Source: an uncultured Gemmatimonadota bacterium
GTDB lineage: Bacteria; JAAXHH01
Assembly (NCBI GenBank): GCA_951812955.1
Contig: OX638340.1
Location: forward strand, 160,001 to 224,000
Direction of reading: 5' to 3'
Length of the DNA: 64,000 bases
Shown: positions 7,711 to 18,738 of the stretch, piece after piece
How the letters are laid out: the number at the start of each line of letters is the position of its first letter
How positions within the stretch are numbered: the first letter of the stretch is position 1
Notes under the pieces: generated by a model
Seen by the model: the letters and a program-made list of their open reading frames with translations, nothing else
What the model was told of the DNA's origin: nothing
Database searches by the model: none
Position numbers and translations under genes: made by a program

Positions 7711-8448
7711 ATGTCCGCGCGGTCCTCGCAGGAGGCGCTGGAAGCGCTGAAACAGTTCGATACGCCCTCGATTACGAACGTGGTGGCGACCTACCCGACC
7801 CACCCCCTCTGCCTGGGCCTGTACAATCCCTGGTCGGAGAACTGGTATACCGATCAGACCATCAAGTGCATCTATCCCGATCTCGGGCGCACCGTGGGCT
7901 ATGCCGTCACGTGCGTATTCGGTCTTCCCGAGCCGGGCTTCAAGAACCTTTCCTTCCTGGACGTGATCGATGCCCTGGACGCATCCCCGCAACCGACGAT
8001 TCTGGCAATCCAGCAGAAATTTCCCCCGGAGATCGCCGGCAAGGTGGGGCTCGCCGGCGGTAATATGACCGCTTCTGCCAAGGCGGTGGGATGTGTGGGG
8101 GTCGTCTCGAACGGACCCTCCCGCGATATCGACGAGATCCGCCCCATGAAGGTACAGTATCTGCTCAGCGGAATTACGCCGGGACATGGCGACATGGCCG
8201 TGCACGCGGTGAACGTGCCCGTATCCGTTGGCGGAATGGACGTGGCCCCGGGCGAGATCATCCACATGGACGAGAACGGCGCCTGCAAGTTCCCGGCCAA
8301 CAAACTGGACGCGGTGCTCGAAAACGCCACGGCGCTTGCGGTCGAGGAAGAGTCCCGCATCGCCGCCTTCCAAAGCGCGCGCAATGCCGACGATGTCCGG
8401 GCTATCCTGGGCGGACACAGCTACGGCAAGAAAGAAGAGGCTGAATGA
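7711..8448 (+). CDS. RraA-family protein (RNase E inhibitor RraA / 4-hydroxy-4-methyl-2-oxoglutarate aldolase-like)
   Basis: 245 aa; RraA/MenG-like fold signature (GDxxxxxGxxGxxxA-like region AIQQKFPPEIAGKVGLAGGNMTASAKAVGCVGVVSNG); stop overlaps next start (ATGA). Confidence 0.6.
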   Translation: MSARSSQEALEALKQFDTPSITNVVATYPTHPLCLGLYNPWSENWYTDQTIKCIYPDLGRTVGYAVTCVFGLPEPGFKNLSFLDVIDALDASPQPTILAIQQKFPPEIAGKVGLAGGNMTASAKAVGCVGVVSNGPSRDIDEIRPMKVQYLLSGITPGHGDMAVHAVNVPVSVGGMDVAPGEIIHMDENGACKFPANKLDAVLENATALAVEEESRIAAFQSARNADDVRAILGGHSYGKKEEAE

Positions 8449-9926
8449 AATGCGTCTTTGTCGTACTTGATACCGTCCGCCGGGACTTCCTGTCCTCATA
8501 CGGCAACGACTGGGTCCATACGCCGGCCCTCGACCGTCTGGCCGAGCGAGGCGTCGTTTTCGACAACCACTGGGTAGGTTCGCTTCCGTGCATGCCCGCG
8601 CGCCGGGAGTTCATGACCGGCAGGTACAACTTCATCTACCGGGGCTGGGGACCCATCGAGCCCTACGACGACACCCTGCCCGGCGAGTTGCGTAAGAACG
8701 AAGTATTCACCCACTTGCTGACCGATCATTACCACTATTTCGAACTCGGCGGCGAGAACTACCACACGGCCTTCAACACCTGGGACTTCTTCCGAGGCCA
8801 GGAAAACGACTGGTGGGCGTCCCACGTGGACCGGATGGCCCTGCCGGATCACCTGGGGCAGCTCACGCAGCAGAACTATGGCAACCGCAAGCTGCAGCAG
8901 CGGGAGGAAGACTTCTCCGGTCCCAAGACCGCGCAGGCGGCCATCGAGTGGCTGAAGTCGAACCAGGCGGCGGAGGACTGGTTCCTTCAGGTCGAGATCT
9001 TCGATCCCCACGAACCCTTCTATTGCACGGAGAAGTATAGGTCCATGTACGGGGACGATTACAAAGGCCCCTTTTACGACTGGCCGAGTTACGACGAAGT
9101 GCACGAGTCGCCGGAAGCCATAGACCACGTCCGGAAGTGCTATGCCGGGCTGCTTACGATGACGGACCACTGGGTCGGCAAGATCTTCGACACCCTCGAC
9201 GAACTTGGGTTGTGGGAAGATACCCTGGTCGTGTTCACCACGGATCACGGCACCATGCTGGCCGAGCATGATTTCTGGATGAAGAACATTATGCCGCTGT
9301 ACAACGAGATCGTCCGCATTCCCCTGATCGCCAGTCTGCCCGGCAACGAGAGAGCCGGAACGCGGACCGGCGCGCTCACGCAGACCATCGACCTGATGCC
9401 GACCTTTCTCGACTACTTCGATACACCGCCGCCGCCCCACGTGCAGGGTACGTCGTTGCGCGGGATGCTGGACGGCGAAGGCGTGCGATCGGACGGCATT
9501 TTCGGATATTTCGGCATGGCGATGAACATCACCGACGGCCGGTACGTGTACATGCGCAACCCGGTGAACGAGGATGCCGGCCCCCTCTACGCCTATACGG
9601 CCATGCCCACCGGCGGCCTGAACCGCTGGTATCCGCGGGAGGTGTACGACCGGGTGGAAACGGGCCGCTACTTCGGCCACACCTACAACCTGCCGCTGTA
9701 CAAGATCCCGACGGAGGGCAAGGTCCCGAGGCACCATCCAGACGAGGCGTCCTACGCGGGGCGCAACCAGCTGTTTGACGTGGTCGCCGATCCCGCTCAA
9801 CAGCACCCGATCGTCGATCCGGAACTGGAAAGGCATTTCACCGACGGGATTGCCCGGCACCTTGAAACCTGCGAGGCCATGCCGGAGCAGTTCGCCCGGC
9901 TCGGTATCGACCCGCCCGGCGCATAG
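8445..9926 (+). CDS. sulfatase (Cys-type formylglycine, arylsulfatase family)
   Basis: 493 aa; sulfatase signature CMPARREFMTGR (C-x-P-x-R-x4-TG) near N-terminus; ATG overlaps upstream stop. Confidence 0.85.
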   Translation: MKCVFVVLDTVRRDFLSSYGNDWVHTPALDRLAERGVVFDNHWVGSLPCMPARREFMTGRYNFIYRGWGPIEPYDDTLPGELRKNEVFTHLLTDHYHYFELGGENYHTAFNTWDFFRGQENDWWASHVDRMALPDHLGQLTQQNYGNRKLQQREEDFSGPKTAQAAIEWLKSNQAAEDWFLQVEIFDPHEPFYCTEKYRSMYGDDYKGPFYDWPSYDEVHESPEAIDHVRKCYAGLLTMTDHWVGKIFDTLDELGLWEDTLVVFTTDHGTMLAEHDFWMKNIMPLYNEIVRIPLIASLPGNERAGTRTGALTQTIDLMPTFLDYFDTPPPPHVQGTSLRGMLDGEGVRSDGIFGYFGMAMNITDGRYVYMRNPVNEDAGPLYAYTAMPTGGLNRWYPREVYDRVETGRYFGHTYNLPLYKIPTEGKVPRHHPDEASYAGRNQLFDVVADPAQQHPIVDPELERHFTDGIARHLETCEAMPEQFARLGIDPPGA

Positions 9927-9957
9927 CGTATTGCACGATGGAGGGATCCGTTGGGCG

Positions 9958-17277: not shown

Positions 17278-17391
17278 GAGGCGACACGGCCGCAGATAAG
17301 AATCAGGGTGACCGGAGTTTGTCTCGGTTTTCCCCGCAATATCATTCTTGGGAATCCGCGCTCGAATCGACGAAGAGGAAGAGTTCATATC

Positions 17392-18738
17392 GTGAACCCC
17401 GTTGATACATCCACCGCAGTCCCGGCATCGGCCATGCCTTCCGCCGGAGGCGACCCGGTCCCCGTCCCGGCGTTCCACGTGATGATGAAACCCCGGGGGG
17501 CCATCTGCAATCTCGATTGCAAGTACTGCTACTTCCTCGCGAAGGAGGACCTGTACCCGGGCAGCGGATTCCGCATGTCCGAAGACCTGCTCGAAGAATA
17601 CATCCGGCAGTACATCGAGGCCCAGCAGGTACCGGAAGTCACCTTTGCCTGGCAGGGCGGCGAGCCCACGCTCATGGGACTGGACTTCTTCCGCAAAGCC
17701 GTTGAATTCCAGAAAAAACACCAGAAACCGGGAACGCGGCTATTCAACTCGCTGCAGACCAACGGTACGCTCCTCGACCGGGACTGGTGCCAGTTCTTTC
17801 ATGAAAACGACTTCCTGATCGGTCTTAGCCTGGACGGCCCCCGGGCGCTGCACGACGCCTACCGGGTCGACAAGGGCGGCAAACCGACCTTCGACACCGT
17901 AATGCGCGCCGCCGAGATGATGCAGTCCCACGAGGTCGAATTCAACATACTGACCACGGTGCACGCGGCGAACGCGGGGCACCCCGTCGAAGTCTATCGC
18001 TTCATGCGGGACGTGGTGAAGACCCGCTTTATCCAGTTCATTCCTATCGTGGAGCGGGACAACGAGACAGGGTACCAGGAAGGCAACGAAGTGACGAACC
18101 GGTCGGTGACGGGGAAGCAGTACGGCCGGTTCCTGATCGGGATTTTCGACGAATGGGTACGCCGGGACGTGGGGAATATGTACGTGCAGATATTCGACGT
18201 GTCGCTCGCTGCCTGGTCGGGCCAGAGCCCGGGTCTCTGCATATTCATGGAGACCTGCGGCGATGCCCTCGCCCTGGAGCACAACGGGGATCTATATTCC
18301 TGTGATCACTATGTCGAACCGGATTACAAGCTGGGGAATATCGCCGAAATACCCATGATGGATATGGTCCTGTCCGATCAGCAGCGGGCCTTTGGACAGG
18401 CCAAACTGGACACGCTTCCGCAATACTGCCTGTCATGCGACGTGCGGTTCATCTGCAACGGGGGTTGTCCGAAGAATCGTATCATAAACACGCCCGACGG
18501 CGAACCGGGCCTGAACTACCTGTGCGAGGGGTACAAGGCCTTCTTCCACCACATCGACGGTCCCATGCAATTTATGGCCAATGAACTGCGCAACCGGCGG
18601 GCTCCCGCCAACGTGATGTCGTACATCCGCCAGCGCGAATCCGAACTTCGGAAACAGCAGCAGTTTCAATCGGTGGGGCGAAACGATCCCTGTCCTTGCG
18701 GAAGCGGCCTGAAGTACAAGCGGTGCCACGGAAGGTAG
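17392..18738 (+). CDS. anaerobic sulfatase-maturating enzyme (radical SAM, SPASM domain), with C-terminal SEC-C-like Zn motif
   Basis: radical SAM [9 protein letters not shown] (CxxxCxxC); SPASM Cys clusters (CDHY..., [18 protein letters not shown]); C-terminal [16 protein letters not shown]; likely start GTG 17392 with GAGGAAGAG RBS (ORF track GTG 17308 also in frame). Confidence 0.8.
   Translation: [448 protein letters not shown]

Follow-up and report, generated by a model that had tools for sequence, protein, structure and literature searches.

We analysed a 64,000-nt stretch of DNA from an uncultured Gemmatimonadota bacterium (contig OX638340.1, positions 160,001 to 224,000 of the forward strand; hereafter the window), which has a G+C content of ~61% and carries, on the plus strand between positions 7711 and 18738, a run of eight co-directional open reading frames (ORFs). 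These encode, in this order, an RraA-like protein, a first sulfatase (Sulf1), a family-5 solute-binding protein (SBP), a PhyH-family dioxygenase (PhyH2), a second sulfatase (Sulf2), a 469-aa protein, a third sulfatase (Sulf3) and an anaerobic sulfatase-maturating enzyme (anSME) (Table 1). A preliminary description of this DNA had reported a one-strand, eight-gene locus with short junctions, and this layout was recovered; the RraA-like, sulfatase (all three), SBP_bac_5, PhyH, and Radical_SAM plus SPASM assignments all scored above the curated Pfam cut-offs. The RraA-like and Sulf1 genes share an ATGA overlap (a junction of −4 nt), as expected from the translational coupling that had been claimed for them, and the gaps that follow PhyH2, Sulf2 and the 469-aa gene are of 9, 45 and 55 nt, respectively. 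Sulf3 and anSME are separated by 114 nt, or by 30 nt if GTG 17308 is taken as the anSME start. On either side of the SBP gene the junctions are longer, with 159 nt before PhyH2 and 168 nt after Sulf1, the latter given the start ATG 10095, which was taken from the start called in a 95%-identical relative. A GGAGG Shine-Dalgarno sequence lies 8 nt ahead of the RraA-like ATG.

Table 1. Features of the sulfatase locus and its downstream flank, in window positions.
Feature	Position	Strand	Remarks
Promoter-like site TTGACA-17-CATATT	7608-7636	+	75 nt 5′ of the RraA-like start; consensus match only
RraA-like / HMG-aldolase-family protein, 245 aa	7711-8448	+	PF03737, 71.3 bits (cut-off 24.5)
Sulfatase 1 (Sulf1), 493 aa	8445-9926	+	Leaderless; Cys-type CMPAR at residue 49; phosphonate-monoester-hydrolase-type S1 nearest
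Family-5 SBP, 598 aa from ATG 10095	10095-11891	+	PF00496 (SBP_bac_5), 258.2 bits (cut-off 32.4)
PhyH2, Fe(II)/2-oxoglutarate dioxygenase, 274 aa	12051-12875	+	PF05721, 57.9 bits (cut-off 22); intact H121-x-D123…H201 triad; lineage-specific operon member
Sulfatase 2 (Sulf2), 451 aa	12885-14240	+	Leaderless; Cys-type CTPSR at residue 50; distant BetC relative; conserved core
469-aa protein, (β/α)8 glycoside-hydrolase-like, predicted cytoplasmic	14286-15695	+	D191-W-P-E194, Y198, K330, H419; conserved core
Sulfatase 3 (Sulf3), 508 aa from ATG 15751	15751-17277	+	Leaderless; Cys-type CVAAR at residue 52; conserved core
anSME, radical-SAM/SPASM, 448 aa as called in relatives	17392-18738	+	ORF opens at GTG 17308; C-terminal SEC-C zinc motif
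GPP34-family gene	18807-19520	−	154 bits; bacterial GPP34 / Golgi phosphoprotein 3 homologue; convergent with anSME, syntenic throughout the clade
TonB-dependent receptor	19654-22257	−	Convergent with the operon; synteny limited to the clade

Against the sulfatase profile PF00884, whose cut-off is 25 bits, Sulf1, Sulf2 and Sulf3 score 135.5, 125.0 and 144.2 bits. Their partner passes the maturase equivalog TIGR03942 with 499.9 bits (cut-off 349.45), contains the radical-SAM motif CNLDCKYC and matches SPASM at 34.3 bits and TIGR04085 at 63.9 bits. The locus had been described as three Cys-type sulfatases together with their radical-SAM maturase, and so it appears here, with the qualification that the motif of Sulf3 (window 15901-15915, residues 52-56) is a CxAxR variant and not the canonical CxPxR. 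The CxAxR motif is accepted by anSMEs, not by the formylglycine-generating enzyme FGE, and this would account for the presence of a dedicated anSME in the operon. A tight, co-directional arrangement of sulfatases and maturase also agrees with the expectation that the locus acts on sulfate esters. Pairwise identities among the three sulfatases are no more than 24-27%, which makes them three distinct subfamilies, and because their domains begin at residue 3-4, with upstream junctions of 9 nt or an overlap that leave no space for a signal peptide, all three are predicted to be cytoplasmic. The nearest structures in the PDB are 2vqr (107.6 bits) and 4upi (105 bits), both phosphonate monoester hydrolase (PMH)-type S1 enzymes, for Sulf1; 6fny (BetC, 179 bits) for Sulf2; and 7oz8 (167 bits) for Sulf3, whose BetC-type relatives score 134-167 bits. 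None of them reaches the BetC equivalog TIGR03417 (cut-off 433.45 bits), against which Sulf2, Sulf3 and Sulf1 score 261.8, 184.1 and 122.6 bits, and Sulf3 matches PRK13759 at 263 bits, under its cut-off of 481. Since the only enzymes they resemble are of the small-molecule BetC and PMH types, the sulfatase substrate is probably small rather than polymeric.

The maturase has a further feature at its C-terminus (window 18670-18738), a SEC-C zinc motif (PF02810, 41 bits). The same tail is present in 120 of the 120 best anSME homologues, which are 69-98% identical to the window protein and come from Latescibacteria, Zixibacteria, Handelsmanbacteria and Chloroflexi, including the cultured Litorilinea aerophila. 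In SecA the SEC-C tail binds SecB and ribosomes, so that the tail of the anSME could conceivably take part in maturing sulfatases during their translation. A literature search for anSME together with SEC-C found no paper with both terms.

The SBP has a signal- or lipoprotein-like N-terminus (…AAVLALSFLQC) and is predicted to be a secreted, lipoprotein-type family-5 binding protein; its best NCBIfam match is the OppA equivalog (181 bits; cut-off 947). Our Pfam scan, which covered part of the ORFs in the 64 kb, revealed no Opp/Dpp-type permease (BPD_transp_1) or ATPase, and the ORFs searched for permeases between 34 and 64 kb turned out to be nuo, glycosyltransferase, MsbA-like, PGM and SurA genes instead, so that within the ORFs covered the SBP is an orphan, as had been proposed. 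The RraA-like protein falls far under the cut-offs of all the NCBIfam equivalogs of its family that it matches (LigK, 44 against 304.5 bits; another, 27.6 against 136 bits), and 5x15 is its nearest PDB entry (38.6 bits). It contains a …NGPSRD… segment, which we take to be the conserved Arg-Asp motif of the RraA/HMG-aldolase family.

The gene between Sulf2 and Sulf3 had been set aside as an unannotatable 469-aa protein. With respect to sequence matches this holds, as the protein has no hit in Pfam or NCBIfam and a PDB sequence search returned only a chance match at E 1.4. A Pfam search at E ≤ 10 with 20 close family members also gave nothing meaningful, with one of the 20 reaching PF02449 (GH42) only at E 0.067 and the window protein itself finding no match. 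The label does not hold at the level of fold and remote homology, both of which point to a glycoside-hydrolase (GH)-like enzyme. More than 1,400 homologues were retrieved from a collection of 5.8 billion proteins, and the top homologues listed are unnamed or called "hypothetical protein", none of them with a Pfam domain. The family occurs in 438 GTDB species genomes among those scanned, and a profile search of 1.84 billion representatives recovered 522 clusters, formed at 50% identity, with E ≤ 1e-3, nearly all of them single-domain proteins of ~440-490 aa. Close members are 55-65% identical between Latescibacterota, Gemmatimonadota, Planctomycetota, Caldilineaceae, Opitutales and others, and the family is also found in Chloroflexota. 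One representative, P0362 (596 aa), has an N-terminal DUF123 domain.

The structure model of the 469-aa protein is confident and predicts a (β/α)8 barrel similar to solved GH42 enzymes and to the GH153/GHL10 fold. A Foldseek search with this model placed PgaB on top (E 2e-8), followed by beta-amylase and GH42, and the structural neighbours of the model are nearly all glycosidases, although the identity to any solved structure is at most 14%. Divergent members connect the family to known ones at the sequence level: P0432, which matches the family profile at E 1.8e-52, passes the Pfam GH42 cut-off of 21 with 25.2 bits, and others give weak matches to GHL10, GHL6, DUF4015 and GH129. In an alignment that extends down to 21% identity, the sole invariant carboxylates are D191 and E194, which lie in a D-[W/H]-x-E-[Y/F] motif after a barrel strand; Y198 and K330 are invariant as well, and H419 is nearly so. 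Many of the divergent members carry a CFCxxC cluster right after the D-x-x-E motif, of which the window protein retains only C197; this cluster resembles the GH42 zinc site. From the model and the alignments we infer that the 469-aa protein is a glycoside-hydrolase-like enzyme, a predicted hydrolase of an unnamed family remotely related to GH42 and GHL.

We then compared the neighbourhood of the locus across genomes and metagenomic contigs (designated L002 to L097 below). The neighbour counts should be read as approximate, as the gene caller, which is based on third-codon-position G+C (GC3), missed genes in lower-GC loci (L029, L034 and L037), and a tblastn table served as a cross-check. The full eight-gene set is present at >60% identity in 18 loci, all of one clade of metagenome-assembled genomes (MAGs) labelled Latescibacterota, Gemmatimonadetes or "bacterium", with complete or near-complete assemblies of ~3.5-4.0 Mb; by isolate names, the clade includes the sponge MAG SB0665_bin_8 and the coral MAG Plut_88884. 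In the nearest relative, OY762445.1, the 469-aa protein is 95% identical, and the metagenome contig L090 has the same architecture as the window. Beyond this group, the Sulf2-469-aa-Sulf3 core is kept in L024, L027 and L031 at 60-75% identity (67-73% for the 469-aa protein). The deep-sea contigs L091 and L094, in which Sulf2 is 62-64% identical, keep RraA-Sulf1-SBP…Sulf2 in co-directional order; the 469-aa gene is seen downstream in L091 only, as the L094 contig ends inside Sulf2. An anSME gene lies near the Sulf2 homologue in L092 and L097. By contrast, RraA, Sulf1 and SBP5 were not detected in the 7.7 kb upstream in L007, where the 469-aa protein is 88% identical, and the RraA gene of L027 lies on the opposite strand at a distance of 6.5 kb. 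From the genes retained in L024, L027, L031, L091, L094, L092, L097 and L007, the unit is modular, with a module A (RraA-Sulf1-SBP) and a module B ((PhyH)-Sulf2-469-aa-Sulf3-anSME); Sulf2, the 469-aa protein, Sulf3 and anSME form its conserved core, RraA-Sulf1-SBP an often-associated part and PhyH a lineage-specific one. The preliminary description had suggested looking for conserved co-occurrence of PhyH, sulfatase and RraA-like genes, and what is kept in L091 and L094 is RraA-Sulf1-SBP, not PhyH.

It could be argued that there is no single unit here, and that independent modules (RraA-Sulf1-SBP; PhyH; Sulf2-469-aa-Sulf3-anSME) came to lie side by side in one clade and were inherited by descent. 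Within the clade, unrelated housekeeping flanks are as syntenic as the operon itself (the SelD fusion, GPP34, TonB-dependent receptor and M1 peptidase genes are equally conserved), so conservation at the clade level is weak evidence. The arrangements in L007 and L027 point the same way, and the gaps of 159-168 nt around the SBP gene could hold internal promoters. However, A and B recur as co-directional neighbours in the distant L091 and L094, all eight genes are on the same strand, four of their junctions do not exceed 55 nt, and a single anSME serves three sulfatases that are spread over both modules. On balance we consider this explanation unlikely.

At greater distances the surroundings of the genes change. 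In L003, L029, L030, L033 and L034, the 469-aa gene has a Sulf2-like sulfatase (35% identity) as its divergent neighbour; in L037, L050 and L063 this sulfatase gene is encoded on the opposite strand, within ~1-2 kb upstream. The neighbours in L024, L027 and L092 include an FGGY kinase, MR_MLE dehydratases, a class-II aldolase, an AraA/FucI-like isomerase and an AraC regulator, a sugar-catabolism flavour which suggests that these intermediate loci are in line with a carbohydrate substrate. In L092 (760-10059), the Sulf2 homologue (60% identical) is immediately followed by a 163-aa C-terminal fragment of GH4, probably a remnant, and then by AraC regulator, class-II aldolase, AraA/FucI-like isomerase, anSME and MR_MLE genes; a different glycosidase family (GH4) thus occupies the slot of the 469-aa gene in this contig. 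The neighbours in distant loci include NUDIX, methyltransferase, EamA, DUF4886, RGL11-like, GHL10, Zn-ADH, GFO_IDH_MocA and MR_MLE genes.

PhyH2 had attracted attention in the preliminary description, which proposed that PhyH-like enzymes paired with hydrolytic sulfatases may form a dual module, able to desulfate a branched or lipid-like substrate both oxidatively and hydrolytically. In such a scheme PhyH2 would act as AtsK does, hydroxylating the ester carbon to give an aldehyde and sulfate beside the hydrolytic sulfatases. Its position 9 nt ahead of Sulf2 and its intact HxD…H triad are compatible with this idea, and so is a second, independent architecture in other Latescibacterota, in which a sulfatase is followed by PhyH, an aldehyde dehydrogenase, an M42-like peptidase and, further on, a second sulfatase (L030, L033, L050 and L063; partly L003). 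This set is located ~2-10 kb upstream of the 469-aa gene homologue and divergent to it, its PhyH belongs to a different subfamily (258 aa) and its sulfatase is 35% identical to Sulf2. The aldehyde dehydrogenase, which from its sequence looks like a methylmalonate-semialdehyde dehydrogenase, is what the product of an AtsK-type reaction would need, but such an enzyme is equally expected after many other oxidative steps. DMFA2_C, BD-FAE esterase and Asp/Glu racemase genes are sometimes found in this second architecture. As it has its own sulfatase-PhyH order beside the 469-aa gene, adjacency of the two next to this family has arisen in two architectures, and a weaker link at the family level survives.

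The remaining evidence is not favourable to an AtsK-like PhyH2. The protein shows no match to PF02668 (TauD/AtsK) at E ≤ 0.01 and neither AtsK nor TauD among its PDB matches at the same threshold, its nearest solved relatives being the fungal TlxI, AndA and EasH, at 46 bits or less; we know of no PhyH-family dioxygenase that cleaves sulfate esters. Nor is its linkage to sulfatases conserved. PhyH is absent from the homologous operons in L091 and L094, and between SBP and Sulf2, L091 has an amidohydrolase fragment and a small outer-membrane protein gene in its place. Not one of the four PhyH2 orthologues found in other genomes at 63-68% identity adjoins a sulfatase gene, and their neighbours are unrelated; in one case a sulfatase lies 2.3 kb off, with an opposite-strand dehydratase gene and a UDG gene in between. 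Of the 80 metagenome loci that contain a Sulf2 relative, only the same-clade contig L090 has a PhyH gene beside it. Around 469-aa family genes, PhyH genes occur in 20 of 59 neighbourhoods, evenly spread over positions −6 to +6. They accompany 6 of 13 loci with a sulfatase and 15 of 46 without (four-cell counts of 6, 7, 15 and 31), which as raw counts show no clear association. The two additional PhyH paralogues that had been noted in the window were confirmed, at 1409-2173 (135.3 bits) and 25517-26302 (39.4 bits), and the three are very divergent from each other. This, together with the even spread around 469-aa family genes, makes PhyH look like a common background gene in these genomes. Finally, a glycosidase-like partner argues for a carbohydrate and not for a lipid. 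The dual module for a branched or lipid-like substrate is thus not supported. We give an AtsK-like role of PhyH2 a probability lower still than that of juxtaposed modules. As a separate observation, in L002 (2292-4340), where the 469-aa product is 95% identical, the PhyH2 region is broken and gives a partial match, and Sulf2 was called as a shortened product of 353 aa, which is either an assembly error or the decay of exactly this pair.

Taken together, these data can be read as a real operon that catabolises, in the cytoplasm, an imported and multiply sulfated small molecule of carbohydrate type, such as a glycoside, a disaccharide or a short oligosaccharide. We hold this reading at roughly even confidence, and any individual step of it at much less. 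The lipoprotein SBP would capture the substrate in the periplasm and deliver it to an unlinked ABC permease. In the cytoplasm, the co-encoded anSME would convert the three leaderless Cys-type S1 sulfatases, including the CxAxR enzyme Sulf3, to their formylglycine form, and these would remove different sulfate esters. The 469-aa TIM-barrel enzyme, as a relative of GH42 and GHL, would cleave the glycosidic bond through E194 (with D191), located where a barrel strand ends. A 2-keto-(3-deoxy) acid product might then be the substrate of the RraA-like protein, acting as a class-II pyruvate aldolase or decarboxylase, and PhyH2, as a lineage-specific accessory, might hydroxylate the sugar or aglycone that is set free. 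The preference for a carbohydrate over a lipid comes from the glycoside-hydrolase-like nature of the 469-aa protein.

Besides the syntenic flanks mentioned above, several observations weigh against this reading. Promoter and terminator scans of the region gave counts no higher than expected from shuffled sequence and are therefore uninformative on operon structure. In the family alignment (A4) there is no second invariant glutamate or other carboxylate to serve as nucleophile, so that a classical retaining nucleophile is not evident, and the alignment of the family with a GHL10-like one by hhalign, which pairs GFRPDWPEYP with GIHLDYIRFP, is not significant (probability 0.6%, E 0.098). The sulfatases match, and distantly, only small-molecule-type S1 enzymes, not a carbohydrate sulfatase subfamily of known specificity, and family-5 SBPs most often bind peptides. 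Moreover, ~40 of the 59 non-redundant loci of the 469-aa family have no sulfatase within 10 kb, which indicates that the family is not dedicated to sulfated substrates. With this proportion and the varied sugar-type neighbours, a general carbohydrate-processing enzyme that was recruited into the sulfatase operon in some lineages would fit.

Another reading is that the substrate is a sulfated small molecule other than a carbohydrate, such as a sulfated (glyco)peptide or an osmolyte resembling choline sulfate, and that the TIM-barrel protein has an activity different from glycoside hydrolysis. The SBP is OppA-like, Sulf2 and Sulf3 are nearest to BetC choline sulfatases, the 469-aa protein lacks an obvious nucleophile, and peptidase-type neighbours recur: M1 in the window (23823-25499), and M42, S15, D-aminoacylase-like, Asp/Glu racemase and DMFA2_C in the second architecture. 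Yet the best BetC equivalog score is 262 bits against a cut-off of 433, the M1 peptidase gene is on the opposite strand and 5 kb from the operon, and both the structural neighbours of the 469-aa protein and the sugar-pathway genes at intermediate loci speak for glycoside chemistry. We regard a non-carbohydrate substrate as improbable, to about the same degree as the side-by-side modules, and keep the sulfated carbohydrate as our working interpretation.

A broader proposal, more tentative and in our view rather doubtful, would join all these elements. The 469-aa protein would found a new glycoside-hydrolase family without a Pfam or NCBIfam model, with a D-W-x-E motif in place of a classical Glu nucleophile and possibly with substrate-assisted catalysis on a 2-acetamido sugar. 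In this clade, together with three dedicated cytoplasmic sulfatases, it would form a "sulfo-glycoside" disassembly line that takes apart, inside the cell, sulfated glycans presumably derived from a host or from algae. The operons with the order sulfatase, PhyH and aldehyde dehydrogenase beside the same gene would, independently of this, be an oxidative branch in the catabolism of sulfated metabolites that has not been described.

The genes around the operon are largely of a housekeeping type (EPSP synthase, a SelD-like fusion, the nuo operon and lipopolysaccharide-type glycosyltransferases). The fusion, on the minus strand at 4335-6563, has 742 aa, joins a pyridine-nucleotide-disulphide oxidoreductase to AIRS/AIRS_C (SelD-like) domains and is conserved in the clade. 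Immediately ahead of the operon, at 6920-7444 on the plus strand, a 174-aa protein without a Pfam match is 86% identical in L091, where Sulf2 is ~62% identical; small and highly conserved, it accompanies the RraA end of the locus. The TonB-dependent receptor had been presented among the next genes downstream. It is encoded convergently on the minus strand, and we rejected both this gene and GPP34 as operon members, given their opposite strand and a synteny restricted to the clade in which everything is syntenic. The junctions between the genes are made of short tandem repeats with units of 14-26 nt (14230-14285, 17260-17301, 9955-10027 and 11905-12013), several of which include a stop codon, such as GCCCATCGTAGCGA, GCCCATCGTAACAA and GCCCATCTGAATAA after Sulf2. 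The Sulf2/469-aa junction is also repetitive in the clade relatives L007, L008, L013, L014 and L025 (~9930-10000), with different repeat units. Such spacers seem to evolve fast and to be prone to slippage.

Among sponge symbionts, the PAUC34f and Poribacteria lineages are known for their wealth of sulfatases (PMC7081726). The locus offers a compact, testable unit in this respect, in which a maturase, a binding protein and a glycosidase-like enzyme stand beside three divergent sulfatases predicted to be cytoplasmic, and biochemical work on the 469-aa family could both establish a new glycoside-hydrolase family and reveal a sulfated compound that marine symbionts use. The most useful result is that a "hypothetical" gene proves to belong to a strongly conserved family (~55-65% identity across phyla) which model and alignments place among the TIM-barrel glycosidases. 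The tempting hypothesis of PhyH as an AtsK-like desulfating oxygenase, on the other hand, is left without support. The anSME-SEC-C fusion, for its part, is widespread and goes unmentioned in the searchable literature.

With regard to known systems, our literature searches on PhyH with sulfatase and on Latescibacteria with sulfatase and sponge found no description of this one, in agreement with the earlier remark that it was not recognised as a described system, and the translational coupling of an RraA-like gene to a sulfatase was likewise not found in the searchable literature. Sulfatase and anSME pairs (aslA/aslB and ydeN/ydeM of E. coli, the chuR-dependent sulfatases of Bacteroides and Clostridium anSMEcpe) share with the locus S1 sulfatases with a C/S-x-P/A-x-R motif beside a radical-SAM/SPASM maturase. 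The classical examples are exported sulfatases, whereas here a single maturase, which carries a SEC-C motif, would serve three leaderless Cys-type enzymes predicted to be cytoplasmic. BetC of Sinorhizobium meliloti (6fny) is also a leaderless small-molecule-type S1 sulfatase, and BetC enzymes are the nearest solved relatives of Sulf2 and Sulf3; the second architecture, like betICBA, pairs a sulfatase with an aldehyde dehydrogenase. The window locus differs in that it has no BetA/BetB/BetI set and in its sub-threshold BetC equivalog score.

Polysaccharide utilisation loci (PULs) for sulfated polymers, such as the carrageenan PUL of Zobellia with its cytoplasmic anhydro-galactose pathway, have in common with the locus the sulfatases, a glycosidase (glycosidase-like here) and a TonB-dependent receptor nearby, and relatives of the window locus likewise carry genes for downstream enzymes of sugar-acid metabolism, namely aldehyde dehydrogenase, MR_MLE, kinase and aldolase. 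They differ from it in that no SusD-family match was found among the annotated neighbours of the locus, the receptor is on the opposite strand, the sulfatases and the glycosidase-like enzyme are predicted to be cytoplasmic instead of periplasmic or surface-bound, and uptake would proceed through an orphan family-5 SBP. An importer of the Opp/Dpp ABC class is represented only by this SBP, its permeases and ATPase being absent from the window ORFs scanned.

At the level of single proteins, the 469-aa protein differs from GH42, from the C-terminal GH153 domain of PgaB and from GHL10, GHL6 and DUF4015 in being a single domain of ~465 aa without the trimerisation and C-terminal domains of GH42, in its low identity and lack of Pfam matches, and in having no conserved second Glu. 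PhyH2 shares with AtsK and TauD the Fe(II)/2OG chemistry, the double-stranded beta-helix fold and the HxD…H triad, but it belongs to PF05721 and not to PF02668, and its association with sulfatases is not conserved. The RraA-like protein has the PF03737 domain of the HMG/CHA aldolase and RraA family in a 245-aa long form, which scores far below every equivalog. Thus, while sulfatase-anSME pairs and sulfated-glycan loci are already known, the layout with three sulfatases per maturase, all predicted to be cytoplasmic, the orphan family-5 SBP, the coupled RraA-like gene and the glycosidase-like family without a Pfam or NCBIfam model set this locus apart, and the 469-aa family, which may define a new glycoside-hydrolase family, is its most interesting part.

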